A stretch of 64,000 bases of DNA. Source: Escherichia phage ECO71P1. The translations under genes were made by a program, and so were the position numbers. Position 1 is the stretch's first letter; each line of letters starts with the position of its first letter. The stretch is from sequence record OP172789; one strand, written 5' to 3'. The notes beneath the pieces are model-generated. The model was given only the letters and a program-made list of their open reading frames with translations, was not told where the DNA came from and searched no databases. Shown piece after piece: positions 41,164 through 62,650 of the stretch.

Positions 41164-41166
41164 AGT

Positions 41167-41583: not shown

Positions 41584-41584
41584 T

Positions 41585-43175: not shown

Positions 43176-43177
43176 GT

Positions 43178-43800: not shown

Positions 43801-44126
43801 ATTGCAAACTCCGCTTCAGCAGTTTTCTGGAATTCAGCCAACTCAGATTCTGACATGTAATATAAATTACAGCCACCAGAGTTAAAATTCTCATAATCGG
43901 GTGCGCTGTCAAAAATAAAATTGCCGTACCCAATCATGAGATATTTATAAGGCACCATTGGTATACCACCAAAACAGCGCACCCCTTGAATCAACAATTC
44001 GCCATTGCGGTAAACATCTGCGCACATGTGCTCAATTGCGGCGAATATGTGCAGCTGCCAATAAGCCCCGTCAACGTTAAAGCTGATATTCTGGTTAGGT
44101 ACGCTGTCAAGTGGTATTTGATACAT
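43797..44126 (-). CDS. hypothetical protein (109 aa)
   Basis: ORF track. Confidence 0.4.
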   Translation of the reverse strand: MYQIPLDSVPNQNISFNVDGAYWQLHIFAAIEHMCADVYRNGELLIQGVRCFGGIPMVPYKYLMIGYGNFIFDSAPDYENFNSGGCNLYYMSESELAEFQKTAEAEFAI

Positions 44127-44593
44127 TATAAAATCTCTTGGTTGCTCACGCCAGTTTTGACTACGTTCTCAAACTTAAAGCGATATTGACGTGTTTTTAC
44201 ACGACCCTGAGACTGGATGCCAGGAATTACTGAACCAGTCGTCAAAGTGCCCTTGTTCAGTGTAATGACCATGCCAGAAGGGTAGGTCAGAATAAGGGTG
44301 ATCACGTCTTTCGCAGAGTTCTTGCGCTTGCCTACACGGTTAGCCGCAGCCAGAACATCTAAGTTCACATCGCTTTCAGAAGTAGGGATGATGTTGACGC
44401 CTACTTCAAGAGGGTTGGCACGGTTCCAGACTACCAGGTCACCGTTCAATCCCATTGCCGCTTCAGAGATTTGAAGATCAGGCGCGTCAATCGGATCAGC
44501 ATCATCTGCGAAATCAGAAAGAGTTACACCATTTGGAAAAGTGCTTGATGCCACTAAACGAATCGAAGCGCCAAAACCGGAAACGTTAATCAT
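44126..44593 (-). CDS. tail tube-like protein, paralogue A
   Basis: Directly downstream of sheath gene; N-terminus MINVSGFGASIRLVA... Confidence 0.55.
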   Translation of the reverse strand: MINVSGFGASIRLVASSTFPNGVTLSDFADDADPIDAPDLQISEAAMGLNGDLVVWNRANPLEVGVNIIPTSESDVNLDVLAAANRVGKRKNSAKDVITLILTYPSGMVITLNKGTLTTGSVIPGIQSQGRVKTRQYRFKFENVVKTGVSNQEIL

Positions 44594-44640
44594 TACAGAT
44601 TCCTCTCAGAGAGATGGCCGCCAGTTACGGCGGCAATTAT

Positions 44641-46179: not shown

Positions 46180-46191
46180 GTCGGTGTCCTC

Positions 46192-46677
46192 TTATTTAAT
46201 GACTTGGCTGCTGACAGATTGCCACATGAGGCTAGTGTGAATCAAAGGCTTGTCGAATCCCTTCACACGTACAGTATATCTGGCGTTTGGTTGCCACGGT
46301 CCGTTTTTAATTGATTCGACAATCTTTGCTTCCATCGCAAGCCCAATTTGACCCAATGCCTGTCTAGCGTCTATTTTACCGGAAAAAATCTTTTTAGCAA
46401 TTTTATTCTCTATTTCACTGCGCTCACTAACGAATAATTCATAGGCATATCTCATGAATGGTCTGGGTGGCACTTCTACCCTGACTGGGCCTTGTCCAAA
46501 GTTCAAAACGGCTATGTGACCAAACTCGTTAAGCCGCGCGACTTCTGACACCAGCATGCCTTCTCCACCAGTTTCTGAAGGGTATCTGGTAGAATCAAAC
46601 CATCCTGCCTCAACAGTAAGACCCTTCATAGATTGAAGTGCCTTAATCTGTTTTTCTATCATTTTTGATTTTGTCAT
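46192..46677 (-). CDS. head-tail joining/completion protein candidate
   Basis: Between capsid and sheath genes; start adjusted to TAATATG coupling. Confidence 0.4.
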   Translation of the reverse strand: MTKSKMIEKQIKALQSMKGLTVEAGWFDSTRYPSETGGEGMLVSEVARLNEFGHIAVLNFGQGPVRVEVPPRPFMRYAYELFVSERSEIENKIAKKIFSGKIDARQALGQIGLAMEAKIVESIKNGPWQPNARYTVRVKGFDKPLIHTSLMWQSVSSQVIK

Positions 46678-46678
46678 A

Positions 46679-47260
46679 TTACACCGGAACGTCACCCAAA
46701 TCATTATTAACAGCTCTTGCCACTGCAGGAGTATCAATTGAAATTGCGTTTCTGTGAAGTATTACTAAATCAAAAGAAGGGAATGATTCGAATTGTGACA
46801 TGTCATCATAAAACTTTTCATTATTATTCATGTCGATTCGATATACTGATGCCTGATGCTTTTTGAACCAATCTCTCAGATTAGCTTTATGAGTTATGAA
46901 TCTTGCCAAATAAGTCAATACGTCATTAGCAGTAGGCTTTTCTGGGTCGCCAGGGACTTCTGGAAATAAGCCACTAATTTGAAAACGTGTTGCGTATATC
47001 TGATCTTCAATGTCTTTAAATTTGCCGTTTACAAATTGAGACTCATCATTGACAAATTCACTTTTCCTCATGGACCATCCAAAAGGAACTGAGAATAAAA
47101 GGTTAAACCAAATTTGATCACCAGTCGGAATGCCCTGTTGAGTCGGTTGATACTTTTTCTGGACCGGAACAGCAGAAAGGTCTGCACGACTATACGCCGC
47201 CAGACCTTCTTCAATTCGCGTTGCCAGCATGTCAATCAGGTCGACATCTGTCATATACAC
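46679..47260 (-). CDS. head-tail joining protein candidate (193 aa)
   Basis: Position. Confidence 0.4.
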   Translation of the reverse strand: MYMTDVDLIDMLATRIEEGLAAYSRADLSAVPVQKKYQPTQQGIPTGDQIWFNLLFSVPFGWSMRKSEFVNDESQFVNGKFKDIEDQIYATRFQISGLFPEVPGDPEKPTANDVLTYLARFITHKANLRDWFKKHQASVYRIDMNNNEKFYDDMSQFESFPSFDLVILHRNAISIDTPAVARAVNNDLGDVPV

Positions 47261-47261
47261 C

Positions 47262-47648
47262 TCAAGTAGACACTGGAAAGCTTTGTTTTACTTCCACGGC
47301 AAGGCAAGACGTCCAACCATCTTGGTCAAACCATGTCGTTTCATCTTCCATTTTATACGTTTTCCCACCAAACACAAAATAGTCGCCGGAAGCGTCGCGG
47401 TCAAGGTCAACAATGTCTTTGTCTACCCAGATTTTGACATAGTTCTTTTGAAGCTCTAATCCAAGCTCGACGTATTGATTTCGAAGAACAGCCTGCACCG
47501 AAGCAAGTAGCGTGATTGGTTCTTCATAAGTGGTAACGTAGTTGCGCATTTTATCAAGAGTGCGCCCCTTGTACATGTAATATTGAATCGGTTGGCGACC
47601 GATGACCTTTGTCGCAACTCGATATAAGTTTACGCCAGGAATCCTCAC
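47262..47648 (-). CDS. head-tail joining protein candidate (128 aa)
   Basis: Position. Confidence 0.4.
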   Translation of the reverse strand: MRIPGVNLYRVATKVIGRQPIQYYMYKGRTLDKMRNYVTTYEEPITLLASVQAVLRNQYVELGLELQKNYVKIWVDKDIVDLDRDASGDYFVFGGKTYKMEDETTWFDQDGWTSCLAVEVKQSFPVST

Positions 47649-48109
47649 CAGAATACCCCACCAATTTTACGAAATCCTTCGCGCTCTGGAAGCCCACCGA
47701 ATGACAAGCCGCCAACGGCCAGTGCTTGAAGAAGCGCCCACAGCGCCATGCCATAAGGAGTGCTTGACAGCCAGTATTCCCAACCATCACTCGCAGGCGG
47801 CGCTACCTTATTCACAGTGATGTCACCGATTGTTGCACCAGTTACGAAGCCGCCTTGTTCAACTCCGTCACCAGAAGACACAGACACCTGTTGGTCTGCG
47901 GCTATGCATAAAAGATGAGCCGTCATATATTCCAATGCCAGCTCCAATTTACTGCCATTCAAAACACGACAAGGACTGTCTTGTGATTCAATAAATTCAC
48001 ATGCCATGTCATAGAATACTTGAAGCGTTGTGTCAGGGAATTTTACCTGATCGGCAAACTGTGGAAATTTTATTCTGAACTTTTCGTAATCTAATGACAT
48101 GGCATTCAC
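47645..48109 (-). CDS. head-tail connector/adaptor candidate (154 aa)
   Basis: Position. Confidence 0.4.
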   Translation of the reverse strand: MNAMSLDYEKFRIKFPQFADQVKFPDTTLQVFYDMACEFIESQDSPCRVLNGSKLELALEYMTAHLLCIAADQQVSVSSGDGVEQGGFVTGATIGDITVNKVAPPASDGWEYWLSSTPYGMALWALLQALAVGGLSFGGLPEREGFRKIGGVFW

Positions 48110-48114
48110 CTTAT

Positions 48115-48579
48115 TTAAACGCGGAACAAATCATCTTCTTGTTCGCCGCTCAATTTAACCTTGATGCGCTTGTCAGCCGTCTCACGCGTCATAGGTGCGA
48201 ACGGGTCATCTGACATGCCGCGCACCTCTTTAGCGACAGCTTTGTGATTGCCAACAATGTCGTGGTTTACGACTTTAACCAGACCTTTTTCAAGGTGTTG
48301 CTTGAATACGTGATGATCTTTTAAATGTTCAAAATCAGCATCGCTTACAACGGTGACGATTCCTTCAGGAGTCCACAAAGGTGCACCATCAGCGCCTTTT
48401 GCCATTTCACCAAAGCCGGAAGTTGCAGAAGTAAGACCCGCGCCGCCCTTAATCAGAATCTGTTTGCGAATATTTGGAAGAGCGCCTGAACCAGCTTTTG
48501 CGTTCGGGTTTTCTTTCACTTCCGTATAGAAAGTGTAGTTGACTGACATAGACATAGTTGAAACGATGTATTTTGGCAT
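48115..48579 (-). CDS. hypothetical head protein (154 aa)
   Basis: Position after capsid gene. Confidence 0.4.
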   Translation of the reverse strand: MPKYIVSTMSMSVNYTFYTEVKENPNAKAGSGALPNIRKQILIKGGAGLTSATSGFGEMAKGADGAPLWTPEGIVTVVSDADFEHLKDHHVFKQHLEKGLVKVVNHDIVGNHKAVAKEVRGMSDDPFAPMTRETADKRIKVKLSGEQEDDLFRV

Positions 48580-48694
48580 TTTGTAGTCCTATTTATATAA
48601 GCCTCAGATAAGCCCCTACAGCCCTTGAGGTCTATTGATATGGGGCGAAGCCTTTCGACCACGCCCCATGTGTTTTACTGTGTAATCACAGCAA

Positions 48695-49834
48695 TTAGAT
48701 ACCAGTCATACGGACGACTGCGAAAGGACGCTTAAGCAGAACGCCTGCTGTTGCGTTTGCGTAGTCTTCAACGTAGCTCTTAGCACGTTTCTCAACGCCC
48801 AGAGTCATGAACTTAGTCTGAACCAGCTGGCTGAATACGGAACCATCATCGCTTGAGCCATCAATTGAGGAATCGATGTGATCAGCGTACAGATATGCCA
48901 CGTTCAGGAAAGTCGGGTCACTGCCAAGTGCGCCGTTGAGTTCCGGTGCAGATTTGATCTTCATCTTCGGATAAGTCTGGGTGATCCAGTCACGTACAGA
49001 AATACCGAAGTCGGTGGTGTTTGACAGCCAATCAATAGAGTTGGTCGGCAGCGCCAGAGTCATATCAACCTTCTCTGGATCAATCTGGTCCTGAGAGTTG
49101 ACACGGATTTGACGAACCATCAAACGGATGTCTGCAGTCACCTGTTGGAAGGTCGCAGTAGCCCAGCCGGAAGTGGTGTTTGAAGTCATTGCCGCTGGCA
49201 GGTTTGGATCATTCAGGAAGCCGAACGTGCGGTTGTTCCCGTTATACCAACCATAGAAGCCGATTGCGTTACGCATGATTTCCAGAGATACAGCAGCCTG
49301 CTGGCGCTTGGTCTCTGCAGAGTTCAGACGCATCGCAGACGCGCGGCCTTCTTCCAGCATGCCGACTGCCATGCCCATTTCACCGCGAACGATGGAACGG
49401 CGTTCAAAGTTCACGTTCCAGCTTGCCAGAGGAATAGAGGTGAAATCACCATATTCAACTGCGGTGCCAGCTGGTTCAACGATGCCCTGAACGATTTCTG
49501 CATCTTCCCACTGACCAACGGTGTCAATACCAACCAGCTCGTCAATTTTACGGGCAGCGGTCATGATTTTGACGAAGCCAGGCAGCCACTGTTGCAGGAA
49601 CTGCAGCGGGGTCGGGATTGATGGCGTGGTCTGCGGCGCAGTAAATGCGGCGTCACCTACGCGGAAAGCGCCTGCACGGTTTAAGTGCTCAATCTGATCA
49701 CGCACAATCGCGGAATCAAACACAATACCGATACGCGCAAGCTGGGAAACAGCCGCGTCGGTCACGGATTGCATATCAAAAGGGCGCACCTTGCTCGCTG
49801 GGAGGCGAGAGTGTGTTTGGCTAATGCGAGTCAT
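48695..49834 (-). CDS. major capsid protein
   Basis: 379 aa gene following protease/scaffold and a 212-aa gene; assignment by position and size. Confidence 0.6.
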
Positions 49835-49848
49835 TATTCACCTGCCTA

Positions 49849-50487
49849 TTAACGAGTCAATTGTACAATGGTATAAGTGGAAGACTGGACGCTTGGGCCG
49901 GAAAGGGCAATAGTCGTCGGGTCAATCACAATACCGCCTGGGATGGCAACCATGCCAGTTGGCAATGAGCCAGTATAGGCGATAATTGCACCAATAGGCA
50001 AGTTGTTCGGGTTGTTACCGCTGGAAATGCCTTTAGGTACATAAGCAAGCAGGTCGCCATAGTTAAGCGTCTGCGGACTGGTGCTTGGGTTGAATACTTC
50101 AACTACGAGGCCCGTGCACATATCATAGAACTCGCCTTCGCTATATTGAGGCAGAACCATGCTGGCACCCAAAGGACCAGTAGAGTTGCCATACAGCGCG
50201 TAACGCTTGCTATTGCCGAGGATGCCGTAGTAGTTAGTGCCGCCCAGCTCAACTTCAAAGTCCTGCGCGCCCAAAGTTTTGGTTTGACCAGTACCCATTA
50301 AGGATACGTCAGTCTTAAAACCGAACACACGGCTGATGGCGTTTACGTTTGCGCCTTCGTTAGCGTTGGCAATTCGGCCTGGCTTCCCACGCTGTGGGCC
50401 GTCGCGAACGATGTCGCCAGGAAAGCCAGTTGTATATTGACGGCCTACACTAGTTTGGAAAGTCATGTTTATTCCCCTTTCAACCAA
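49849..50487 (-). CDS. head decoration/auxiliary capsid protein candidate
   Basis: Between scaffold-protease and major capsid genes. Confidence 0.4.
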   Translation of the reverse strand: MVERGINMTFQTSVGRQYTTGFPGDIVRDGPQRGKPGRIANANEGANVNAISRVFGFKTDVSLMGTGQTKTLGAQDFEVELGGTNYYGILGNSKRYALYGNSTGPLGASMVLPQYSEGEFYDMCTGLVVEVFNPSTSPQTLNYGDLLAYVPKGISSGNNPNNLPIGAIIAYTGSLPTGMVAIPGGIVIDPTTIALSGPSVQSSTYTIVQLTR

Positions 50488-51887
50488 GCTTCAAATGCTT
50501 CGTCAGTTGCTGCAGAATCCGCAGCGGCCTTTTGTTTTGCGACTACACGCTGTTTTTGACCGTGTTCAACGCCGCGCAGATAATTATCCACCACGTCAAA
50601 CTCAGCACCATCAACGCACTTCAAGCCTAACTTTTTAGCGCCATATTTCGCTACGGACTTGGAGTCCATAGTTGCATGATCAAAGGCACCAACAACTTTA
50701 GACAGGCGCTGGTAGAGGCTATTCTTACGAGCAGAATCAGCGTAGAAAGCAGCAACTGCTGAATCAGATGCCATTGAGTGTTCCCCTTTTGCTGGACCTG
50801 GCGACGCTTTCGCCGCTTTTGTCGGTTTGTCATCTTTTTCGACCGAAGCCCCCTTTACGTTGCTGTTTTGCAGGCCGCTAACCACATCTTCAGCTTTGTC
50901 GCAAGGTGATACATCTTCAGCCTTGACTTCAACTTCTTCGTCTTTGACTTCGGCTTCAACTTCTTCTTCATCACCTACCGCGCCACCTTTAAGTTTTGCA
51001 ATAAGTGCTTCGATTTGGCTGATCAGTTGCGGAAGCTCGCCGCCAGCGTGAGATTCAGTTTCAACTTCAAACTTCTCTTCACCTTCTGGAGTCTCTTCAG
51101 CTTCTGCTTTAACTTCTGGATCAACCATCACTTCTTCACGTTCTTCGGTTGAATCCTTCTCTTCTGCTTTCACTTCAACTTCGTCCTGATGAGCAGCTTC
51201 GGTGCTCTCTTCATTCAGAAATTGTTCGAGCGCAGGGATCAGTGATTTCAGCTGTTCAACAGCATTATCACGCGCTTTACCTTTTAACGGTTTTGGCATG
51301 TCTAAATCCTCGTTGGATGGTGTTACAGTCGTCAAACAAAGATGGTCAAAGCAACGACCATCCAGCACCCGTGCACCTGGTACTCGACCAACGTCCACGA
51401 GAGCAATGTGGTTGCCGCGAAGAGTTGTCTGTACCACTTCATACGGCTGCCCGTCAAACTCTCCAGACTGTATGATGAATTCACAGTCATAGCCCAAAGA
51501 CAAGTCAACCTTTCCAGAATCGATGGCCTTCTTCAGACGACGGCTAAAAACTTTAAGGTCGCCGCGCATCCATGGCTTGTCATAATAAACATTGCCAGTT
51601 AGAACGCCATCAACGCCATACTCTTCGGGTGCTGTGTTATCCTCATCACCTTCGAATCCAGAAAGCATTTCGTGATTGTCGATGAAAGGGATATTTTTGA
51701 ATGAATCTATCGCTTCGGGGTCTTTCACCGCTGACTCTGGGCGATAAACTTTTACGATGCGATTCGGATCACCATCAAGTCCAACCTGACCTGCAGAATA
51801 ATCAAAAATGCCAAATGACGAAATGGGACAACCCACAATCGTCAAGAATCCATTTTTGTCAATTTCGCGTGCCGTTTGCATTCGCAT
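50469..51887 (-). CDS. prohead protease-scaffold fusion protein candidate
   Basis: N-terminal ~200-aa globular domain followed by a long Glu/Lys-rich repetitive helical region (EVEVKAEEK ...) typical of scaffolds; immediately upstream of capsid genes. Confidence 0.55.
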   Translation of the reverse strand: MRMQTAREIDKNGFLTIVGCPISSFGIFDYSAGQVGLDGDPNRIVKVYRPESAVKDPEAIDSFKNIPFIDNHEMLSGFEGDEDNTAPEEYGVDGVLTGNVYYDKPWMRGDLKVFSRRLKKAIDSGKVDLSLGYDCEFIIQSGEFDGQPYEVVQTTLRGNHIALVDVGRVPGARVLDGRCFDHLCLTTVTPSNEDLDMPKPLKGKARDNAVEQLKSLIPALEQFLNEESTEAAHQDEVEVKAEEKDSTEEREEVMVDPEVKAEAEETPEGEEKFEVETESHAGGELPQLISQIEALIAKLKGGAVGDEEEVEAEVKDEEVEVKAEDVSPCDKAEDVVSGLQNSNVKGASVEKDDKPTKAAKASPGPAKGEHSMASDSAVAAFYADSARKNSLYQRLSKVVGAFDHATMDSKSVAKYGAKKLGLKCVDGAEFDVVDNYLRGVEHGQKQRVVAKQKAAADSAATDEAFEAWLKGE

Positions 51888-51994
51888 CCACCCTCAAATA
51901 AGTATTGTGTATTATATCTAATGAAAAAAACTTAGGCAAACAATAATTATGGTTTGAATATGTATAACAACCGATATAGCCGCGCCTTAATTAG

Positions 51995-52300
51995 TGTGAT
52001 ACGGATGATACGGATAAAATGAGGCGTATTTTTATCCGTATCGGTGTATAAGCCGCGCTATCACTGGTGTGCTACGGATGATACGGATGATACGGATACT
52101 TTTCATATATAAGAGTTTATAAAAAAATAAAATTAAATTAGATATATAATTTTAAATTAATTTATTTGAATTCCTATAAAGTATCGCGGCAACGCGTATC
52201 ATCCGTATCATCCGTAAGATTCTTTTGAAAACAACTACTTACTTGATACGGATGATACGTCATTATACGCGTAAAATCCTGCGGCAATCCATTGCCAGGC
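51995..52300. repeat. iteron region B: five clusters of the 9-bp unit CGTATCATC/GATGATACG in both orientations plus GCCGCG-containing boxes and an AT-rich tract
   Basis: Copies at 51998-52016 (inverted), 52033-52044, 52073-52100 (inverted, three units), 52195-52216 (direct), 52245-52261 (inverted). Confidence 0.8.
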
Positions 52301-52303
52301 GAT

Positions 52304-52441
52304 TCAGTGAATATTAAAAAGCACTCCAGCAACTAAAACGCCAATCAGCATCGAGTCGTAAACAGCCCATTTCCAAGAAAGCAAAGAGTTGCAATTAATA
52401 TTTCGCACTTTAACGTAACGTGACTGAATAATCTTTTGCAT
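52304..52441 (-). CDS. small membrane peptide (45 aa)
   Basis: AGAGGAAG RBS 8 nt upstream; C-terminal hydrophobic segment; abuts the iteron region; below the size cut-off of the ORF track. Confidence 0.35.
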   Translation of the reverse strand: MQKIIQSRYVKVRNINCNSLLSWKWAVYDSMLIGVLVAGVLFNIH

Positions 52442-52451
52442 AACTTCCTCT

Positions 52452-53372
52452 TTAGTTCAACTTAATTGCGGTGATCTGTCCGTAAACGGTAGATGTCAAT
52501 TCGTCTGTGCATTGATAGTTTAGATACACGTTGCCAGGCGCGGCAAGAGTAATTATCTTTGTTGGAATATTGCCGCCGAAACGACCTGCAGCCCGAATGC
52601 CAGCAGACATCGTGAATGCATCATCCGTAATATCTGAATTACTTGTTGACAATTTTACTGTAATTCCGGTATTCGCTTGAACTCCTTCTGTTGCGACAGT
52701 CAACTGACTTGCTGTCACAAGCCATTTCCCTGCAGGCAGGTTTAATGTTGCCAGATTCACCAGAGTTGTCGGAGGATTGCTTACACTATTGCTTGTGTTT
52801 TGCACATTGCTTGCAGCAGCATTAAGAACTCCAGAACCATCAATTGATAGTGTCGCTCCTACTTTTACGCCACCCAAGGTTGATGCTGATGCAATCGGTA
52901 ACGAGTATTGAGTAACACTAATTGTACCGTCACCTGCAACACTTATGCCACTTCCTATCTTGACGCCGCCGAGAACAGAAGCCGTTGCCGCTGGTAACGT
53001 GTATTGGTTGCCGCTGGATTTGACTACCTTAACGGCGACAGCATTCTTGGACCCTCCAGACTCCATGCCTATAATCACCGCTTCTCCAAAAGCGATGGTG
53101 ATTGTAGATGCAGTTAAACCAGTCTGCACGTCTGTTATGTCCATTTTGGGAACTGAAAGTGTCAGATTCGGCTTGCTGGTAGAATCGCCATCATTACCGA
53201 TCATAAAGAATTGGCCGACTGAATTGTATCCAGATGCCAATGGCGGACTCAATGGAACAATCAAATTTTTATCGGATGTAAATTCTGAAACAATCGCCAA
53301 ACCGTTCGCATATACAGCAGGTAATACTGGCGTTTGTCCAGATATAGGAAACGTGCTGATTGGTATCGTCAT
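52452..53372 (-). CDS. fibre-like protein with tail-fibre-type repeats, located inside the head module
   Basis: Repeats ATASVLGGVKIGSGISVAGDGTISV and STLGGVKVGATLSIDGSGVLN; start adjusted to ATG with GAGGT RBS. Confidence 0.55.
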   Translation of the reverse strand: MTIPISTFPISGQTPVLPAVYANGLAIVSEFTSDKNLIVPLSPPLASGYNSVGQFFMIGNDGDSTSKPNLTLSVPKMDITDVQTGLTASTITIAFGEAVIIGMESGGSKNAVAVKVVKSSGNQYTLPAATASVLGGVKIGSGISVAGDGTISVTQYSLPIASASTLGGVKVGATLSIDGSGVLNAAASNVQNTSNSVSNPPTTLVNLATLNLPAGKWLVTASQLTVATEGVQANTGITVKLSTSNSDITDDAFTMSAGIRAAGRFGGNIPTKIITLAAPGNVYLNYQCTDELTSTVYGQITAIKLN

Positions 53373-53379
53373 AATGACC

Positions 53380-54231
53380 TCAAATGATTGGTATTTTCCT
53401 GCACTTGCAGTGTATTGCCCATCCAGGAGGACCGATGTCACCCTTTTTGAACTTCAATTCTCCGCCAACTTCCCATAGGCGCTTGTCATCAAGTTTAAAT
53501 CTCATTCCGTCGACGTGTTCATGAGAGATTCGCGGCTCCTTTCCTGCTCCTGAGTGCGCCCATTCAAATTCTTCAACTCCATTCTGGCGCATCCTTTCAT
53601 CGCTTAGAACGCAATACAATTTGCTTGTCTGGTCTTTAGCGATTAAGTCGACTCTCTTTGCAGAGAAGTGTTTTACGTTTCGCAGCGCCGCCTGAATGCC
53701 TGACGTGCCTTGCTGGGCTGGGTCGGGCGAAGTCAGCGAAAGCATTACTGCTTCGTACACTCTGTTGTGAATATCCTCGCCGACCTTAGTCACTAGAGTC
53801 GTGTTAAACGTCTCGCTTGTTCTAAGAGTGTTCTCAACGAATTTGTTATATGTGGCCTTTGGCGCTTCTATGCCTGCGGACTTAAGGCTGGCGAATGTAG
53901 CAGAAGTAGCACCCTTTTCGACCGATTTGATAAAATCAGCGGCAATCTTTGACCCAACACGAGCAAACGCCCTTGCCCATTTCAGCTGCAGACGTTTCAT
54001 AAGAGTTTGGAATGTTGAATCAGCAGAGTCTTGCGCAAAGAACTTCTGCACCTGCTTCTTTTCAAGCCACTCTGAAATTCCTGCCTGATAGTCATCAATC
54101 ATCGCATAGCAAAGACCTTTCATCTCACGACGGTAGGCCATTGCAATAGCGTTTGATGGGATTATCGGACTGCCGCGCCCGATTCTATCGGGTGAGCGGC
54201 GTTCACGTTTTTTCGAAGCTTTAAAAGCCAT
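53380..54231 (-). CDS. head morphogenesis protein, Mu F / SPP1 gp7-like
   Basis: C-terminal HEHVDGMRF ... GPPGWAIHCKCR motif; directly after portal gene. Confidence 0.65.
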   Translation of the reverse strand: MAFKASKKRERRSPDRIGRGSPIIPSNAIAMAYRREMKGLCYAMIDDYQAGISEWLEKKQVQKFFAQDSADSTFQTLMKRLQLKWARAFARVGSKIAADFIKSVEKGATSATFASLKSAGIEAPKATYNKFVENTLRTSETFNTTLVTKVGEDIHNRVYEAVMLSLTSPDPAQQGTSGIQAALRNVKHFSAKRVDLIAKDQTSKLYCVLSDERMRQNGVEEFEWAHSGAGKEPRISHEHVDGMRFKLDDKRLWEVGGELKFKKGDIGPPGWAIHCKCRKIPII

Positions 54232-54232
54232 A

Positions 54233-56608
54233 TCAACCTTGCTTCGGTGAATTAGTAGGATTATTGAGTGCTCCGTATGCTTGAGAGCAATCACCCTTCA
54301 ACCACTCCTTGAATGAGTTCACATCTAATTCGTGGATTGAGTCGAATCCATTCCAACCGTTACCAAATGATGCTTGATAAGCTTCTTTCGCTTCTTCTGC
54401 TGAATCGAATCCAAGCATACACTTGTGTTCATCAAACTCGCCAGAGTAGTTATCGTTTTGGTTCACGATAAAGACTTTCGGCGACTTCAGATTTGGACCC
54501 ACAAAGCAGTCTACTTCATCACCGTCTGCACCCTTGGTGCCCTTGATGAATCCGTAGTGGTGCGGCATCTTCACGGCCCATTCACCGTCAAGGCTGTTTC
54601 CTCTACGAATGCTGTTGCGCGGATTCTCAATGCCAAGAATCATTCCGTGCAACTTCATCTTAGGTAATGATGCTGCGTCCATTTTACCAACGTTGTGGCG
54701 TAAGTTGACGACGTGTCCTTTAACGCTTGGAAGGGTAGACGGTTGCACCGACCGTGAATCTTTTTGAGGGTCAAAATCCACATCCTGACCTTCTTTCAGG
54801 TAGTAATCCGCAATACCCTCCAGACCTTCTTTCAACTGCGTTAGGACATCAACCTGATGGCTTGATTCATCATCGGTGTCGTCCATGTTGATTTCGACAG
54901 GTGCTCTGTCAGGGTTTTCTGCCAACTCACCACGCGCGGCACCCTCTGGCATAATACCTGTTTCGCTATAGAACTGGCCGCCCATCTTGACAACATCAGC
55001 TTTCGCCTGTTCAATATCGGCCTTACCTTGCAGGACTTCACCAGCAGACTTGCCAAGCAATGCCATATTCTCTGGAGACATCCCTGGGGTTTCTTCTGCT
55101 GCGTCTTCCGGCAGACGGTTGTAGCCGCTGTTTTTGTCGTCTTTGATGCGGTCGCGCTCTTCATCAGGAGAAATGACGCCAGCATCAATAAGAGTTTTGC
55201 CAGTGTTGGCTCGCTTATCATTGATTTCTGCAAGTTGAGTAGCAGTAAGTGAGCCAACTGGTTCCCATGCAACCTTAACATCGACATCCACCCCTTCTGA
55301 TTTGAGAAGGATTTTGTAATGGCGGTCGAGAATTTTTGTCAGGTCATGCTGCTGGCACGTTTCCAACTCTTCGTGATAGCTGACCATCTCGAATTCACCA
55401 GTAGCGTTAAAGCCTTTCGGCGAAGTCCCAAGTAGTTTGGTTGACGGAACTTTTGCGATTGCGGCCACCAGCTGGTACTGGTTCATGATGATGCTGTCGA
55501 AGTCTGACAAGTTGATGTCGAACTGGTCCATCTCTTCTTTTTGGCCAAGCACTTTGACTGCATAGTTATCGCGGTACTTGATCCACATCATCAGACGTTC
55601 TGCAAAAGACCGCTCATTGGCAATCGCCTTGTCAACGTCGGTCCGCAGCGTGGTTGTACGCTTGGACATCGCCAGCAATGGCGCTTCGTTAGCGGTACGT
55701 TCAGCGGCATAGATGCGTTCATAAATCTGCTGAGTCAGAGGAATGCCGCCGTAAATATAAGTTGGCTTGAGAATATCAGCTGGCTCATCATTGCGCAAGA
55801 TGATGAGGTGACTGCGATGATAACGTTGTCCGCTGATCACCCAGTATTCTGGATCATAGAAGTGCTGTGATGCAGGGTCGGCGGTGTTTTCAGACGTTAA
55901 AAATGGCATCATCCAATAAGGGTCAACCTGAATGATTCCCTTATAAGACCCCTTTGTCACACCATCAATGTTAAAAGGCTTGCTGTAATATTCTGGATCA
56001 TCGCTACGCACATCAAATATGATGACGCGGATACCAAAAATATTTTTGAATCGTTCGGCTTCAACTAAGTGCTCTTTGATATTAAATTCTTTATCAATTT
56101 GCTTTAGGCGTTCGCTTGCCTGCACTGACAATTCTGACTCAGAACTGGATTTGACTTCCCAACCTTTACGGACCGCATCGCGTCCTACCATGGAACACGC
56201 CTTGTTCACCAGCCAATGCTGTGCGATGATGGCACAAGCTTGATAGCCGATGAATGACTGTGACAAATACCAGTTTTGAAGTTGAATAGGTACTGTGTAT
56301 GGGTTGACCTGCCCTTCTGAACTGATGTTCTTCAAGGCATTATCCATGACTTTTTTGGATACTGTTGCGGAATCGACTGAACGGCCTTTTATGATAGCAA
56401 CACCGTCGCCATTAATATCAGGCTCATATAAAGGGAAGTCATCAACCGTTTTAAAGGTCGGTCGATTGCTTTCAGTCTTTTCCCAGCGTTGACCGCTGCC
56501 GCGCCTTTCAAGGCGTTCAAACGGTGCCAATGGGTCGCCTGGCGGCATCTCCGCTGGTTCGGCTTCTGGTTGCGTCTTCTCCCAGAGTTTTATGCCAAGA
56601 ATTTTCAT
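54233..56608 (-). CDS. portal protein with C-terminal ~140-aa extension matching the family I inorganic pyrophosphatase signature
   Basis: Large gene between terminase and Mu F-like gene; C-terminal YGFIKGTKGADGDEVDCFV and AEEAKEAYQASF segments. Confidence 0.6.
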   Translation of the reverse strand: MKILGIKLWEKTQPEAEPAEMPPGDPLAPFERLERRGSGQRWEKTESNRPTFKTVDDFPLYEPDINGDGVAIIKGRSVDSATVSKKVMDNALKNISSEGQVNPYTVPIQLQNWYLSQSFIGYQACAIIAQHWLVNKACSMVGRDAVRKGWEVKSSSESELSVQASERLKQIDKEFNIKEHLVEAERFKNIFGIRVIIFDVRSDDPEYYSKPFNIDGVTKGSYKGIIQVDPYWMMPFLTSENTADPASQHFYDPEYWVISGQRYHRSHLIILRNDEPADILKPTYIYGGIPLTQQIYERIYAAERTANEAPLLAMSKRTTTLRTDVDKAIANERSFAERLMMWIKYRDNYAVKVLGQKEEMDQFDINLSDFDSIIMNQYQLVAAIAKVPSTKLLGTSPKGFNATGEFEMVSYHEELETCQQHDLTKILDRHYKILLKSEGVDVDVKVAWEPVGSLTATQLAEINDKRANTGKTLIDAGVISPDEERDRIKDDKNSGYNRLPEDAAEETPGMSPENMALLGKSAGEVLQGKADIEQAKADVVKMGGQFYSETGIMPEGAARGELAENPDRAPVEINMDDTDDESSHQVDVLTQLKEGLEGIADYYLKEGQDVDFDPQKDSRSVQPSTLPSVKGHVVNLRHNVGKMDAASLPKMKLHGMILGIENPRNSIRRGNSLDGEWAVKMPHHYGFIKGTKGADGDEVDCFVGPNLKSPKVFIVNQNDNYSGEFDEHKCMLGFDSAEEAKEAYQASFGNGWNGFDSIHELDVNSFKEWLKGDCSQAYGALNNPTNSPKQG

Positions 56609-56770
56609 TGTTAACGCCACCTGACAGTGAAAGGGAATCAATCTATATTATAAATATTCATGTGTTTGTAAGCAAATGATATGTATGGTGATCATAAATA
56701 GTTCATAAAATATTTTGCTTTTGTATCATTTTGAGTTATATTTTAGTTAACCAAACGAAAGGAGATTGAA

Positions 56771-59001: not shown

Positions 59002-59029
59002 CACAAAAAGTTTGCCTTTCTGAAATTCT
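59002..59029 (+). promoter_or_regulatory. sigma70-like promoter (-35 TTGCCT, 16 bp, -10 TATAAT)
   Basis: Consensus -10 read directly upstream of 59066 gene. Confidence 0.55.
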
Positions 59030-59065
59030 GCATTATAATCATATTAACTCAAAACCGGAGGTAAT

Positions 59066-59281
59066 ATGAAACTCATCGACCGTGCCATCAAAGCCATTGA
59101 TAACCACTCCACCGCGCTTGCTTTCGTGATGGGATTTTGTTTTACTGCTGCGTTTGGCGACGTTCACACATTCAAGTCTGTCATCTTGTGCTGGTCCATT
59201 TGGTCACTTATTTCTCTGGTTTTGATTCTTCCGATGACGTGGCTTGTTCTTACTTGTCTGGAATCTCAAGGTGAAGACTGA
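59066..59281 (+). CDS. small membrane protein (two predicted TM helices)
   Basis: Two hydrophobic segments in 71 aa; GGAGG RBS. Confidence 0.5.
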   Translation: MKLIDRAIKAIDNHSTALAFVMGFCFTAAFGDVHTFKSVILCWSIWSLISLVLILPMTWLVLTCLESQGED

Positions 59282-59502
59282 TGAGACTATCAATCAAAGA
59301 GCGGGCGAAGCGGCCCAAAAGGAGTGAGCCAAAGGCCAAATACGCATGCATCGGCGGACCATTCGACGGTCAAGCGATGTGGCTTTCAAAATCTAATCCA
59401 TCGACGGTTGAGTTTAGCCTTCATGGAATGCGCGGCAGATACCTGCTAAATAGAGAAACAAGTGGCAGTACATTTGTGGAGTGGAAAGAAAATGGCAAAT
59501 GA
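59281..59502 (+). CDS. hypothetical basic protein (73 aa)
   Basis: ORF track; overlap coupling. Confidence 0.45.
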   Translation: MRLSIKERAKRPKRSEPKAKYACIGGPFDGQAMWLSKSNPSTVEFSLHGMRGRYLLNRETSGSTFVEWKENGK

Positions 59503-59725
59503 ATTGACTTTAACAGTACCAAAAGAAGTGCTAGACAAGGCATATGCAGATTCTGTAAAAGAATTAGCTGGAGTGCTTGGAATTGAAAATGAATTCAACG
59601 TTCAGCTGCAATTCCTTAAGGATACTCTTCAAATCAAAGAGAATAGAGAAGCTGGAAGTGGTGCGCCTTTAGCTTTAGCAATCCTCTATGCGGGACTTGT
59701 TTTGCAATCTGGAGATGAACTGTGA
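59492..59725 (+). CDS. hypothetical protein (about 77 aa)
   Basis: ORF track, start adjusted to internal ATG. Confidence 0.4.
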   Translation: MANELTLTVPKEVLDKAYADSVKELAGVLGIENEFNVQLQFLKDTLQIKENREAGSGAPLALAILYAGLVLQSGDEL

Positions 59726-59920
59726 ATCGTTGGTGCAGTTGGAAGCTTAAACGACTCGCCTGGGCCAATGCCGCCAATTCTGCTGGACCAATCGCTGCTG
59801 GTGTTGGGTCGATATGGGATGGTGAGGGCCGTTGGGACTCGCTGTGTGGCACGCGCCTATTCTTTCGCGTAAAATAATATTTGCCCTTCCCGATATGGGA
59901 AGGGAATTAAAGAGGTTATC

Positions 59921-60262
59921 ATGAACAACACTTTATCACAACTGCTAATCTGGACAATCGCTGCTATCATTGGCACCGTTATTATGATGTCAAGCGCAAA
60001 GGCTGAAACGGATATTTGCGGCAGGCTTATTTCTGAGAATGGCGAGATTTATTATGGCAACTCAAAAGGCGATTATATATCACCTGAAGTCTGCGCTCAG
60101 AAGAAAGCAGAAATGCAAAAGCAGTATCATGAAGATCAATCCATATCTCAAGCCGCGCTGATTGAATTAAGTATATCAGCCATCATCTTTCTAATCGTTT
60201 TTATGCTCATTATTAAACCAAATAATGACAGCAACCGTCATATTCCTCTCAAAAGAAATTAA
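59921..60262 (+). CDS. exported/membrane protein (N-terminal signal-like and C-terminal TM segment)
   Basis: Hydrophobic N-terminus ending SSAKAE and C-terminal IIFLIVFMLII segment. Confidence 0.5.
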   Translation: MNNTLSQLLIWTIAAIIGTVIMMSSAKAETDICGRLISENGEIYYGNSKGDYISPEVCAQKKAEMQKQYHEDQSISQAALIELSISAIIFLIVFMLIIKPNNDSNRHIPLKRN

Positions 60263-60300
60263 GGTTATAATACGGTTGTCGACAAAACGAGGACCGTAAA

Positions 60301-62616
60301 ATGCCAAGGCTAATATTCAAAAACAACTTTGAGGTCGCGCTGGCTCAACCAACGACGACTTCAGACACCACAATCACAATTCGCTCAGGGTCGGGCTTTC
60401 CGACCTTGGGCGCAAACGAGCGTGTAGTGGCGACAATCGTCGATGCTGCAACAGGCCTCCAATTCGAAATCGTCACAGTAACAGCCGTTGTTGGAAACGT
60501 CCTGACCGTGCAGCGTGCACAAGAAGGAACTGCAGCGCGTGCGTGGTCGGCTGGTGACATGCTTTCCATTCGAACTACTGCTGCGACACTGACAAATTCT
60601 TTTCGAAACTTCGGGGAAATTCCTAGCGGAATAAATCTTAATGCTTTGACTGGCACTTGGTTTGGCATATATTATCAAACTCAAGATTCAAACGCATCAA
60701 CGACTCTAAATTACCCCATTGCAGTTGGTGGATCACTTGAGGTGTTTACAAGTGGTGCAGGGCAAGAAGGTTGCATCCAAGTTTATAAAGTAAGGAACTC
60801 GGCCAGGTCTTATACCAGGACTTACAATCCACAATCAGGATGGACTAGTTGGAATTCATACAGGATGACTGATGACACCGTGCCTATTCAATTTGGCGGA
60901 ACGGGGCAAACCACAATTCAGGGAATGAAAACAGCTTTTGGATTCGGAACGGTTGCTGATCAGAACATCGTTCCAACTTCAATGGGCGGCACCGGATCAG
61001 GGGATAATGCTCAGGCTTGGCTAAACATCCGTCCACAAGGATCAACACCGCTGGCTGGTGACCCAGTAAACGATTATGATGCCGCGACTAAGCGTTGGGT
61101 TGAGAACTTGGTGAATACAGGCACCGTTGGTCCAAGTATGAACGGTGTTATGAACTATGGCGTCGGTGATTTCCACTTACGGGACAGCCGTGCTTATATT
61201 CAACCTTATGAAGTCGTTTCTGACGGACAATTGTTAAATCGTGCAGACTGGCCTGAGCTTTGGGCTTATGCGCAAATGCTTACCCCTATTGCTGATGCTG
61301 ACTGGCTTGCCGATGCATCCAAGCGCGGCAAATATTCTTTGGGCAACGGAACGACAACATTCCGCGTGCCAGACCGTAACGGCGTCCAAGCAGGGTCCAT
61401 TCCTGGCCTATTTGGTCGAGGTGATGGTGGAGTGTCTTCTTTTGACGGTCGCGTAAGACAAAACGCAGCGCCAAACATAACCGGTTCAGTTGGCACTTCA
61501 ATATCAACGCAATATAACACGGCAGGTAACACAGGGACAGGGGCAATAGTTCCAGCACCTGTTGTTATTCCAGGCCTAAGAGTTGGTCCAGAAGGAGGTA
61601 CAACAAGCCTTAACTATAGGAACGGATTGAACATTGATGCAAGCCTTTCCAATGCTGCTTATGGTCGAGATGGCTCCGCAGAGGTTCGACCTAATGCTTT
61701 TGAAGGCGTTTGGGTGATTCGTGCATCTGGTGGATTTGTCGCGGCGAATACGCAGTGGAGTGTAATTACTGGTGACTCATCCCGTCCATCAACAGGGGTG
61801 ACAACGGATGGCGGTGAAATAATTTCAAGATACAATATTGGAACGGCACAGGAAGCCCAAATGAGCTGGCGCGTTCGCGCTTTAATTGGAGGTACATATT
61901 ATGCTCGCCTTAATGTGTCAAACGCCACAAAAGGCACAACTACTGTATTTGATTTTGATGATACTGGTGCAATGGCTGCTCCTGGCCCAATTTCTGCTGG
62001 TGCTGCTGGTTCAAATTTCAAAAGCACAATAGAAGTAAATAATGTCTCTTATCCAGGACTTTTGTTCAAGCCTACGTACACCAATGGAAACGTGATACCT
62101 GATACTGTTGTTGGAGGGAATACATTCTTTGAGTGCTCATTCATCCAGGGGCAGATATCAGGTGTTCAATTGTATCGTAGGAGGAAAGACGGAAATGCCA
62201 CAGGACAAATAGCGATTTCCTTCCCGACTACTGCCGGAACGATTGCGCTTCAAGGTACATCAGGCATTGAATATAAAAAGGACGTTGTAGATGCAGATGC
62301 CAAGGAAGCGATGGATAGAATCAATTCACAGCGCCTTGTCAATTTCGTTTATAAGGATGATGAGCAAGAGCGTGTGAGATTTGGTATAATCGCTGAAGAA
62401 GCGGAATTGATTGCGCCACAATATATCAAGCACAATCAAGAAAACATTTCTGACATTCTTGATGAAGAAGGAAACAAGATAGGTGAAGAGACTCGTGACA
62501 GACCTTCAGTTGACACAAACCCAATCGTCATGGACTTGATGGGCTGTGTGCAGTATCTCAATAAGCAAATTGAAGATTTGAAGGCAGAGATAGCCGCGCT
62601 AAAGGCAGCAAAATAA
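60301..62616 (+). CDS. tail fibre/tailspike protein with collar-like domain and C-terminal intramolecular chaperone (S74-like) domain
   Basis: Collar-like block DWPELWAYAQ ... TTFRVPDRNG; C-terminal LVNFVYKDDEQERVRFGIIAEEAEL followed by coiled coil. Confidence 0.7.
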   Translation: MPRLIFKNNFEVALAQPTTTSDTTITIRSGSGFPTLGANERVVATIVDAATGLQFEIVTVTAVVGNVLTVQRAQEGTAARAWSAGDMLSIRTTAATLTNSFRNFGEIPSGINLNALTGTWFGIYYQTQDSNASTTLNYPIAVGGSLEVFTSGAGQEGCIQVYKVRNSARSYTRTYNPQSGWTSWNSYRMTDDTVPIQFGGTGQTTIQGMKTAFGFGTVADQNIVPTSMGGTGSGDNAQAWLNIRPQGSTPLAGDPVNDYDAATKRWVENLVNTGTVGPSMNGVMNYGVGDFHLRDSRAYIQPYEVVSDGQLLNRADWPELWAYAQMLTPIADADWLADASKRGKYSLGNGTTTFRVPDRNGVQAGSIPGLFGRGDGGVSSFDGRVRQNAAPNITGSVGTSISTQYNTAGNTGTGAIVPAPVVIPGLRVGPEGGTTSLNYRNGLNIDASLSNAAYGRDGSAEVRPNAFEGVWVIRASGGFVAANTQWSVITGDSSRPSTGVTTDGGEIISRYNIGTAQEAQMSWRVRALIGGTYYARLNVSNATKGTTTVFDFDDTGAMAAPGPISAGAAGSNFKSTIEVNNVSYPGLLFKPTYTNGNVIPDTVVGGNTFFECSFIQGQISGVQLYRRRKDGNATGQIAISFPTTAGTIALQGTSGIEYKKDVVDADAKEAMDRINSQRLVNFVYKDDEQERVRFGIIAEEAELIAPQYIKHNQENISDILDEEGNKIGEETRDRPSVDTNPIVMDLMGCVQYLNKQIEDLKAEIAALKAAK

Positions 62617-62623
62617 TTCACTC

Positions 62624-62650
62624 AAGGCGCTGAAAAGCGCCTTTACTTTA
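62624..62650 (+). terminator. rho-independent terminator (AAGGCGCT GAAA AGCGCCTT plus T-rich tract)
   Basis: Read directly. Confidence 0.6.

Follow-up and report, generated by a model that had tools for sequence, protein, structure and literature searches.

A variable 'T-shaped'-type tail fibre in Escherichia phage ECO71P1, with a predicted self-cleaving chaperone and exchangeable cassettes

In the window analysed here, a 64,000-nucleotide stretch of DNA from Escherichia phage ECO71P1 (sequence record OP172789), the product of the gene at 60301..62616 is, judged by its sequence, orthologous to the variable tail fibre that has been called 'T-shaped' in Wifcevirus myophages and was described for Bas99 Gp114 (Humolli 2025, PMC11990801). 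The fibre type itself was already published in 2025 (PMC11990801); the present fibre is a new combination of alleles. We consider it very probable that the gene specifies a variable lateral fibre of this T-shaped kind, with a self-cleaving chaperone and glycan-binding modules encoded by recombining cassettes. A preliminary description of this DNA had read the gene as coding for a virion fibre, and that reading gains support from the PHROG match of the 771-aa protein (phrog_6921, tail fiber; E 2.7e-200) and from syntenic orthologs in TH32, Mansfield, Bas99, Bas100, Ro157lw, ECML-117, WFC, and SP13; a search of NCBIfam returned no match for the fibre. Its domains follow in the order anchor (aa 1-100), knob (~101-197), RBD1 (~236-515), RBD2 (516-653), and Peptidase_S74 (654-771), and the features of the gene are as follows.

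60301..62616, plus strand: tail fibre gene, an ATG-to-stop frame in the ORF list; precursor of 771 aa, 82.2 kDa
60301..60600, plus strand: N-terminal anchor, aa 1-100; 92-98% identity in all Wifcevirus orthologs
60601..60891, plus strand: pyocin-knob-like domain, aa ~101-197; profile and Foldseek matches to R-type pyocin fibres
60892..61431, plus strand: GGTG-rich linker and conserved RBD1 base, aa 198-377; 82-100% identity in Wifcevirus
61219..61422, plus strand: Collar-like motif region, aa 307-374; SDGQLLNRADWPELWAY ... TTTFRVPDRNG ... LFGRG
61432..61680, plus strand: hypervariable RBD1 tip, aa ~378-460; 31-43% identity to most orthologs
61681..61845, plus strand: RBD1 closing segment, aa 461-515; includes EVRPNAFEGVWVIRASGGF
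61846..62259, plus strand: second distal variable domain, aa 516-653; 'T5-like RBD2' in the literature
62260..62613, plus strand: Peptidase_S74 intramolecular chaperone, aa 654-771; cut predicted between Thr653 and Ser654
62260-62262 and 62275-62277, plus strand: codons of Ser654 and Lys659, the predicted catalytic pair
62581..62643, plus strand: last ~12 codons and hairpin, genus-conserved; right-hand homology arm for cassette exchange
62624..62643, plus strand: terminator-like hairpin 3' of the fibre stop; -15.2 kcal/mol, z -2.1

In the mechanism that we propose, three 82-kDa precursors would assemble from the C-terminus, with the last 118 residues serving as a chaperone that nucleates folding of the distal trimer. 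The chaperone would then cut itself between Thr653 and Ser654, with Ser654 activated by Lys659, to give a mature chain of 68.7 kDa and a fragment of 13.4 kDa. The mature trimer, which its N-terminal ~100 residues, conserved across the genus, would hold on the virion, would present three diversifying modules, namely the knob-like domain, the Gp12/collar-like RBD1 with its hypervariable tip, and the distal RBD2, and these would bind a host surface glycan, most probably the O-antigen. The O-antigen layer would be passed first, after which the conserved HxH fibre and the baseplate would trigger contraction. Homologous recombination in the conserved inter-module segments would swap the knob, the RBD1 tip, and RBD2 together with the chaperone independently of each other, resulting in host-range evolution.

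The gene is preceded by a GAGGA ribosome-binding site 7 nt upstream, and the WFC record carries an annotated terminator at the position equivalent to the hairpin. The locus has an order common to Wifcevirus, namely a divergent terminase gene, five small plus-strand ORFs, the fibre gene, and the terminator; the fibre ortholog adjoins the terminase gene in all Wifcevirus records examined, and the structural module (25 kb) has 97.8% identity with that of Ro157lw. The baseplate/fibre cluster lies on the minus strand at ~30985..41163, and the fibre gene stands ~27 kb off, with the head and terminase genes in between, just as it had been placed apart from the baseplate genes in the preliminary description. 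The region upstream contains these features:

59012..59039, plus strand: sigma-70-like promoter candidate TTGCCT-16-TATAAT; 10/12 consensus matches, by pattern match alone
59066..59281, plus strand: small ORF, 71 aa; strong hydrophobic segment at aa 39-57 (Kyte-Doolittle window 2.32)
59281..59502, plus strand: small ORF, 73 aa; basic, soluble, no membrane segment
59492..59725, plus strand: small ORF, 77 aa; acidic, hydrophobic only weakly and near the C-terminus
59722..59877, plus strand: small ORF, 51 aa; GTG start, a 156-nt CDS in relatives
59921..60262, plus strand: small ORF, 113 aa; signal/anchor-like segment at aa 8-26 and C-terminal membrane segment at aa 80-98

The promoter candidate sits in the divergent region between the minus-strand terminase gene and the plus-strand block. 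Between it and the fibre gene lie five small ORFs, not the four counted previously, and the records of Bas100, Mansfield, ECML-117, and WFC annotate the same set. Their earlier characterization as membrane or exported proteins fits the hydropathy of the products of 59066..59281 and 59921..60262 (the latter reaching 2.06 at aa 8-26 and 2.90 at aa 80-98), but not that of the rest, one of which is basic and soluble. Neither of these two hydrophobic proteins has a match in Pfam or PHROG, the 73-aa protein matches phrog_12090 (unknown function; E 4.8e-28), and the counterpart of the 77-aa ORF is an annotated 234-nt CDS in relatives. The nucleotide identity of the 113-aa ORF is ~91-98% irrespective of the downstream fibre cassette. 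Since the small upstream proteins are ~91-98% identical whichever cassettes follow, their variation is not coupled to that of the fibre, and we reject a specificity-linked role for them, such as that of chaperones or receptor-blocking proteins.

The preliminary description had further listed at least three receptor-binding candidates, among them a fibre-repeat protein encoded in the head module:

52452..53441: head fibre protein, phi29-type; Pfam PF11133 Phage_head_fibr, 33.1 bits against 24.6

This gene is located between head-morphogenesis and protease genes, and its counterpart in the 97%-identical WFH RefSeq record is named 'head fiber protein'. By PF11133 and the WFH annotation, the third candidate is therefore a head fibre, and the phage has two tail fibres plus a head fibre rather than three receptor-binding candidates; two tail fibres have also been published for the genus (PMC11990801).

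Module identities were obtained from motif-anchored slices and pairwise alignment. On clustering, the anchor (aa 1-100) forms one single sequence type in 118 sequences, and the RBD1 base (aa 201-380; 82-100% identity to all Wifcevirus orthologs) likewise forms a single cluster of 118 sequences, with aa 198-377 conserved also in the fibres of DT57C (LtfA/LtfB), phiKT, and bob. The variable part of the knob (aa ~123-197) falls into 31 sequence types in 106 orthologs, and the RBD1 tip has close relatives in Ro157lw (92%) and P0010 (98%). At the DNA level, the RBD1 tip (61432-61678) is the sole break between the fibre gene and the P0002 contig, and homology to Ro157lw, Bas99, ECML-117, and P0010 restarts at 62581-62587. 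On the protein, the exchangeable cassettes map to aa ~123-197, ~378-460, and ~494-762. These breakpoints at domain borders support a locus that is modular and exchanged between phages, and this comparison with related phages thereby upholds, for the modularity of the locus, the earlier proposal of host-range modularity through cassette exchange. The fibre gene is a hypervariable host-range locus in an otherwise ~97% conserved phage backbone.

The knob region is recognized by both profile and fold. An hmmsearch profile against the PDB recovers 6ct8 (E 6.7e-6) and 6cl6 (E 2.8e-5), both of them R2-type pyocin fibres, Foldseek recovers the same two (6cl6, E 6.9e-4; 6ct8, E 1.5e-3; probability 1.00) with an AF2 pLDDT of 71-90 over the domain, and NCBI labels two orthologs 'pyocin knob domain-containing S74 family peptidase'. 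The word 'pyocin' is absent from PMC11990801, in which the knob-like domain goes unmentioned. The preliminary description, for its part, had overlooked the knob-like domain, the second distal binding domain, and the prior description of the fibre type.

The collar-like motif of that description survives as a motif: hhalign against a nine-sequence Collar-family alignment gives a weak signal over aa 307-374 (E 4.8e-4, probability 32%, 42 columns), but Pfam Collar PF07484 stays below threshold (13.2 bits vs 24, E 0.087, profile positions 38-54 of 57). Among nine relatives, DT57C LtfA alone exceeds the threshold (25.0 bits), through another copy at aa 385-400. The profile of the Collar family, to which T4 gp12 (PF07484, PF14928) belongs, aligns with the fibre in the motifs DG..L.R.d(Y/W)PeL, TTF.(L/V)PD.(R/N)G, and (L)F.RG; the fibre differs in 18-aa and 8-aa insertions inside the motif region and in the HxH site, which is absent from the entire 771-aa protein, whereas all nine sequences of the Collar family have H116/H118. 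Against T4 gp12 itself, the Smith-Waterman score is 35 (shuffled mean 37), and hhalign of the fibre family profile against gp12 alone yields a probability of 0.4%. The RBD1 closing segment, in which 69 homologs all have an unchanged VWVIRASGGF block, resembles by eye the NETRPxN..NYIIK end of Collar-family proteins but is left unaligned by hhalign. Monomer AF2 models give no confident fold for the N-terminal anchor and the whole of RBD1, with pLDDT below 50 at aa 225-385, and they reproduce neither a Gp12-like fold nor the T shape. A Gp12-like receptor-binding domain (RBD1) has been described in the orthologs (PMC11990801), and following that literature, the assignment of the Collar-like motif to a whole Gp12-like receptor-binding domain is partly supported.

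The C-terminal segment passes the Pfam threshold for PF13884 (Peptidase_S74; 30.8 bits vs 22, E 3.6e-7, aa 656-707), a domain found in 9/9 relatives scanned, and its profile matches the chaperone regions of 8jov_1, MyRF 7dc3, S16 gp37 6f45, and GA-1 3gud; its fold is similar to that of solved chaperone domains. Across 69 homologs, Ser654 and Lys659 never change, although the region around them is highly variable, and 125/125 orthologs have an S-x4-K motif at a distance of 95-140 residues from the C-terminus. The family and the catalytic residues thus agree with the self-cleaving chaperone-like domain proposed earlier, and the domain is predicted to release itself at Thr653/Ser654. In T5 pb1 the corresponding site is T1263/S1264...K1269, and the mutation S1264A blocks cleavage (PMC4690869). 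That the S74 domain is instead kept in the mature fibre as part of its distal tip, either uncleaved or cleaved but bound, would suit a residue 655 that is Gly where the consensus has Asp (SGIEYK vs SDExxK); it would also suit the vB_Eco4M-7 ortholog, where phage with a C-terminal HiBiT tag were viable and gave a stronger signal than the other sites tested (PMC11074155), a result that fits either reading. We regard such retention as quite improbable, because the invariance of Ser654 and Lys659 is hard to explain without catalysis, the authors of DT57C LtfA predicted a cleavage site from the conserved motif, the same SGIEYK (PMC4728585), and the homologous domain is released in T5 pb1 and K1F endoNF (PMC4690869). 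An enzymatic tailspike, that is, an endosialidase or other depolymerase degrading capsule or O-antigen, is hardly credible. It takes its cue from the Pfam family name 'Chaperone of endosialidase' and from the SP13 ortholog annotated as 'endo-N-acetylneuraminidase', a label apparently carried over from the S74 domain, yet the endosialidase-related part is limited to the C-terminal chaperone, searches of Pfam, PHROGs, and NCBIfam yield no glycosidase family, be it a sialidase, a beta-helix, or another, and the solved-structure matches by sequence and fold are all fibres or chaperone domains. The BASEL study also classes such fibres as lacking enzymatic properties (PMC11990801). We accordingly reject the endosialidase identity and retain that of a fibre with an S74 chaperone predicted to cleave itself.

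As for attachment, the N-terminal ~100 aa of the fibre match the N-terminal end of phage fibre chain 8jov_1 (E 1.3e-9), a likeness that agrees with the fibre-attachment-like region noted earlier, and Foldseek with the same 100 aa finds a resemblance to the tailspike of Acinetobacter phage AS12. By this similarity, aa 1-100 would fix the fibre to the virion. The position of the gene beside packaging and head genes, ~27 kb from the baseplate genes, would fit docking away from the baseplate, for example as a branch on the conserved HxH fibre or at the neck. Such an arrangement may also draw on the Pbunavirus relative E217, which has one fibre type and one attachment loop, on DT57C and phiEco32, which bear homologous distal modules on branched fibres, and on the BASEL authors' statement that the relation between the two Wifcevirus fibre sets is unclear (PMC11990801). 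Nevertheless, the same authors' AlphaFold model led them to propose direct baseplate attachment, and the likeness of aa 1-100 is to virion-binding N-termini (8jov_1, the AS12 tailspike), so that we deem docking elsewhere rather unlikely and favour a fibre held on the virion by its own N-terminus.

By analogy with related phages, the receptor of this fibre is most probably the O-antigen: Bas98-101 are fully dependent on O16 (PMC11990801), vB_Eco4M-7 requires the O157 antigen (rfbE) (PMC11074155), and in DT57C LtfA the O22/O87 specificity is switched through the divergent C-terminal region (PMC4728585). Four phages isolated on O157 have a common RBD2 family, with 61-81% mutual identity vs 21-29% to the rest, and these same named isolates carry four different RBD1 tips; O16-dependent Bas99 and Bas100 have RBD1 tips that are 95% identical and unrelated RBD2 domains (24%). 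The pyocin Knob2 was linked to the killing spectrum by its authors (PMC6116203). It is conceivable, though on balance doubtful, that the fibre has three independently exchanged glycan-reading modules rather than two, with the knob as the third, and that the two distal domains may read different O-antigens. If this were true, host range would be predictable and engineerable module by module, and dual specificity would be the prediction for FEC19, in which an O16-type tip is combined with an RBD2 of O157 type. Wifceviruses are under exploration for O157 detection and biocontrol, and a map that gives the cassettes, their conserved recombination arms, and where cleavage is predicted can be used for engineering fibre specificity. 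Beyond the allele combination, the new questions are what the knob may do and how modules are to be assigned to O-antigens.

Several known systems share parts of this architecture. The knobs of R-type pyocin fibres (PA0620; 6cl6, 6ct8, 6cu2; PMC6116203) are alike in sequence profile and fold, and the fibre knob is, like pyocin Knob2, highly diverse among relatives (PMC6116203), but the pyocin fibres have tandem knobs in mid-fibre, whereas the single knob here comes right after the anchor. In K1F endosialidase, GA-1 gp12, and MyRF (3gw6, 3gud, 7dc3), the intramolecular chaperone (ICA) domain is preceded by unrelated domains, respectively a sialidase, an appendage, and a transcription factor. 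The tip of T5 pb1 (4uw7/4uw8; PMC4690869) likewise has a Thr-Ser scissile bond with Lys five residues after the Ser and a common assembly logic with a C-terminal chaperone, although PDB sequence and profile searches detect no sequence similarity between pb1 and the fibre. Much closer is DT57C LtfA, the L-shaped fibre of a T5-like siphophage (8hqz chain d), whose residues 542-1076 are 68% identical to aa 235-771, with a chaperone that is 83% identical and the SGIEYK cleavage motif in common. The 8hqz coordinates comprise only the N-terminal part of LtfA, so the matched region is unsolved and supplies no structural evidence; and with the RBD1 tip ~41% and RBD2 ~53% identical, an O22-like specificity is not transferable to the fibre. 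LtfA is also unlike it in its T5-type N-terminus, long coiled-coil shaft, and LtfB branch. Bas99 Gp114 shares the locus and its synteny, the anchor (96%, aa 1-100), the RBD1 base (90-100% identity), and the overall order of anchor, Gp12-like RBD1, distal RBD2, and C-terminal chaperone, and differs in every variable module: the knob (45%), the RBD1 tip (25%), RBD2 (28%), and the chaperone (31%).

By its sequence, the window comes from an E. coli myophage of Wifcevirus type. Across the 25-kb structural block (30000..54999), identity is 97.8% to Ro157lw and about 97% to WFH, EC150, RCIP0363, and TH35. The minus-strand structural genes encode the endolysin, a 614-aa fibre, a 912-aa DUF2612 protein, the baseplate wedge and hub, the lytic tail protein, the sheath, the major head protein, the protease, the head-morphogenesis protein, the portal, and the terminase. 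We observed in passing that the 802-aa portal protein (54233..56641, minus strand) joins a Phage_portal_3 domain (aa 133-479, E 3e-88) to a C-terminal, pyrophosphatase-like InPase domain (PF18823, aa 660-782, E 3e-46), a fusion also called on related Logan contigs.

The fibre gene was recovered at exactly the coordinates of the preliminary description, as a 771-aa ORF at 60301..62616 on the plus strand, with a ribosome-binding site (GAGGA) 7 nt upstream. A GC-rich hairpin follows its stop codon at 62624..62643, the position matching an annotated terminator in the WFC record. The product matches PHROG 6921, "tail fiber protein" (E 2.7e-200), and full-length orthologs lie at the same locus in all Wifcevirus records examined; read-archive assemblies add over 100 clusters at 90% identity, on contigs of ~68 kb. 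These Logan/ENA contigs (e.g., L013, L014, and L015) supply the distinct clusters behind the ortholog labels P0001-P0120; fewer than 20 sequenced isolates of the genus were counted in 2025 (PMC11990801), and its sampling in raw read data lies far above that in GenBank. The fibre region has matches in 33 GenBank phage records, almost all from Escherichia phages of the WFC/WFH/ECML-117 group; at the fibre locus itself none of these comes near identity, with TH32 the closest (81% covered, 90.9% identity).

The type of fibre is already known. Humolli et al. 2025 (PMC11990801; the BASEL paper) report two different tail fibres in Wifcevirus, the first genus-conserved with a T4 gp37-like HxH tip and the second variable and "T-shaped" (Bas99 Gp114), with an N-terminal anchor, a Gp12-like receptor-binding domain (RBD1), a T5-like RBD2, and a C-terminal intramolecular chaperone. 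The 60301..62616 gene is this variable fibre, and the 614-aa minus-strand fibre (30985..32829), with eight HxH motifs at aa 455-581, is the conserved one; what is new here is an allele combination of a known family. The BASEL authors consider the relation between the two fibre sets unclear (PMC11990801); the Pbunavirus relative E217 has one fibre type only. The 912-aa structural protein adjoining the HxH fibre (32783..35521, minus strand) carries an N-terminal DUF2612 domain (E 2e-15); the NCBIfam domain "phage head spike fiber" is matched weakly as well, below threshold (E 0.002).

Domain map of the 771-aa fibre protein
aa 1-100: anchor; 92-98% identity across the genus; similar to the 8jov_1 fibre chain at its N-terminus (E 1.3e-9)
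aa ~101-197: pyocin-knob-like domain; matched by the family profile to 6ct8 (E 6.7e-6) and 6cl6 (E 2.8e-5), both R2-type pyocin fibres
aa 198-380: GGTG-rich linker and RBD1 base; 82-100% identity within the genus
aa ~378-460: hypervariable RBD1 tip; 31-43% identity to most orthologs
aa 461-515: RBD1 closing segment; invariant block VWVIRASGGF
aa 516-653: second variable distal domain (RBD2); close matches in TH32, P0001, and P0002 only
aa 654-771: intramolecular chaperone; Peptidase_S74 match, invariant Ser654/Lys659

The N-terminal attachment-like region proposed earlier thus corresponds to the genus-conserved, 8jov_1-like anchor. In the N-terminal AF2 model, only the knob-like domain folds with confidence (pLDDT 71-90), and its best Foldseek matches are again 6ct8 and 6cl6; two orthologs carry the NCBI name "pyocin knob domain-containing S74 family peptidase," and the BASEL paper (PMC11990801) makes no mention of a knob domain. 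The linker and RBD1 base are also 82-100% identical to fibres of the siphovirus DT57C, the podovirus phiKT, and the Dhillonvirus bob.

The modularity suggested from the sequence is seen in comparison with related phages as cassette exchange at both the protein and DNA levels, the nearest relatives differing from module to module.

Closest relatives of each fibre module (identity)
Knob: P0001 and P0002 (94-96%); next best 59%
RBD1 tip: P0001 and P0010 (98%), Ro157lw (92%); next best 56%
RBD2: P0001, P0002, and TH32 (98-100%); next best 54%
Chaperone: the RBD2 set (97%), Mansfield-like (87-89%), DT57C LtfA and bob (83%); rest lower

Apart from a single interruption at the RBD1 tip (61432-61678), the window and the P0002 contig are collinear, with ~92% DNA identity. 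The P0010 contig loses collinearity at the knob (60666-60893) and across RBD2 plus chaperone (61780-62586), and its tip, at 96-97% DNA identity, exceeds most adjacent conserved parts of the gene. Ro157lw is collinear to 61779, with homology returning at 62581. There, the gene's final ~12 codons (…LEAEIAALKAAK) and its terminator (62581..62643, plus strand) are genus-conserved with any chaperone type upstream, even where the chaperone is <25% identical, and form a fixed right-hand homology or recombination arm. When 106 orthologs were sliced at conserved motifs, compared pairwise, and typed at 80% identity, 31 knob, 24 tip, 22 RBD2, and 14 chaperone types were obtained, in 69 different combinations. 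Linkage is tight between RBD2 and the chaperone (adjusted mutual information 0.87) and loose for all other module pairs (0.25-0.43); therefore, the chaperone travels with the domain that it folds, as expected from the chaperone mechanism.

In the proposed mechanism, the conserved N-terminus would fasten the fibre to the virion, the variable modules would bind glycan, and the chaperone would drive trimer folding starting at the C-terminus and remove itself by a cut at Thr653|Ser654. The four O157-isolated phages, Ro157lw (L005), ECML-117 (L008), FEC19 (P0102), and vB_Eco4M-7n (P0062), have a common RBD2 family (61-81% identity, vs 21-29% to the rest) and four different types of RBD1 tip. The O16-dependent Bas99 (L004) and Bas100 (L001) have tips 95% identical and unrelated RBD2 domains (24%), and FEC19 combines an O16-type tip with an O157-type RBD2. 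This small sample of six phages, with host metadata only as the basis, suggests that each distal domain reads its own, different O-antigen. The receptor of the present fibre is not assignable because it combines a Ro157lw-type tip with a TH32-type RBD2.

The fibre gene is the last member of a plus-strand block that begins after a promoter-like site (59012..59039) and diverges from the terminase gene. Five small ORFs precede it (216, 222, 234, 156, and 342 nt), rather than the four first counted, and the same five are annotated in Bas100, Mansfield, ECML-117, and WFC. Their description as membrane or exported proteins fits, by hydropathy, the first (71 aa) and the last (113 aa, with a signal-like N-terminus and a C-terminal membrane segment) and fails for the others, the second product being basic and soluble. 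Family searches assigned none of the five to a functional family. The 113-aa protein (59921..60262, plus strand), directly upstream of the fibre gene, has two cysteines in its predicted periplasmic part and is kept regardless of the fibre cassettes downstream, without family assignment; a role in lysis or superinfection exclusion is conceivable. A perfect TATAAT (60266..60271, plus strand) lies in the 38-nt gap that separates the last small ORF from the fibre gene, with no recognisable -35 element; the gene might have its own promoter besides read-through from 59012..59039.

The count of at least three receptor-binding-protein candidates does not survive. The ORF at 52452..53441 (minus strand), with two ~30-aa repeats, Y(T/S)LP.A(T/S)AS.LGGVK, matches the phi29-type Phage_head_fibr family of Pfam (33.1 bits vs a cut-off of 24.6), sits between the head-morphogenesis and protease genes, and bears the label "head fiber protein" in the RefSeq record of WFH; neither a "head fiber" nor any head-fibre protein appears in the genus description of the BASEL paper (PMC11990801). 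The most likely reading is a capsid fibre rather than a tail receptor-binding protein, which gives the phage two tail fibres, in agreement with the published account, and one head fibre. The collar similarity holds as a motif and falls short as a domain: Pfam Collar scores 13.2 bits (cut-off 24), over the last third of the profile only, and T4 gp12 shows no significant similarity by pairwise alignment or against the fibre family profile. An hhalign comparison with a nine-sequence Collar-family alignment aligned aa 307-374 (E 4.8e-4, probability only 32%), pairing SDGQLLNRADWPELWAY...TTTFRVPDRNG...LFGRG with CDG..vS...Y..LFa...TF.LPD.RG.F.RG. The HxH pair invariant in that alignment is absent from the fibre, and the region is unfolded in the monomer AF2 model (pLDDT <50).

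The strongest PDB match is DT57C LtfA (8hqz_d, E 1e-235; 68% identity over aa 235-771), which represents homology rather than a solved structure of this region because in LtfA just the N-terminal part was modelled (PMC10713586). LtfA recognises an O22-like O-antigen; its divergent C-terminal region shares 82% identity with the fibre of phiKT, and swapping part of it with DT571/2 switched host specificity (PMC4728585). The present fibre and that of phiKT share the RBD1 region only, and by analogy this supports RBD1 as a real O-antigen-reading domain. LtfA specificity is not transferable because the tips are only ~41% identical. Dependence on O16 in Bas98-101 (PMC11990801) and on the O157 antigen in vB_Eco4M-7 (PMC11074155) likewise supports O-antigen as the probable receptor class, by analogy with these relatives.

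The self-cleaving chaperone-like C-terminus is upheld as a chaperone domain (Peptidase_S74, 30.8 bits vs a cut-off of 22), and the fibre family profile also matches chaperone regions of 8jov_1, MyRF (7dc3), S16 gp37 (6f45), and GA-1 gp12 (3gud). No sialidase domain emerged from the family and structure scans of the fibre; hence the label "endo-N-acetylneuraminidase" on the SP13 ortholog (L010 2501..4810) is apparently a misannotation that derives from the S74 "chaperone of endosialidase" domain. A C-terminal HiBiT tag on the ortholog gp27 of vB_Eco4M-7n gave viable phage with the strongest luminescence in a set of 13 tagged phages that came from attempts at 20 sites (PMC11074155), a result compatible with a tagged chaperone cut off and released in infected cells, a reading that its authors do not discuss. 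In a 69-homolog alignment, Ser654 and Lys659 are invariant amid ~140 residues almost without conserved columns. We infer self-cleavage at Thr653/Ser654, with predicted products of 68.7 kDa (aa 1-653) and 13.4 kDa. The site, T653-S654-G-I-E-Y-K659, matches that of T5 pb1, in which the Thr1263-Ser1264 bond is cut, Lys1269 activates Ser1264, and S1264A blocks cleavage (PMC4690869).
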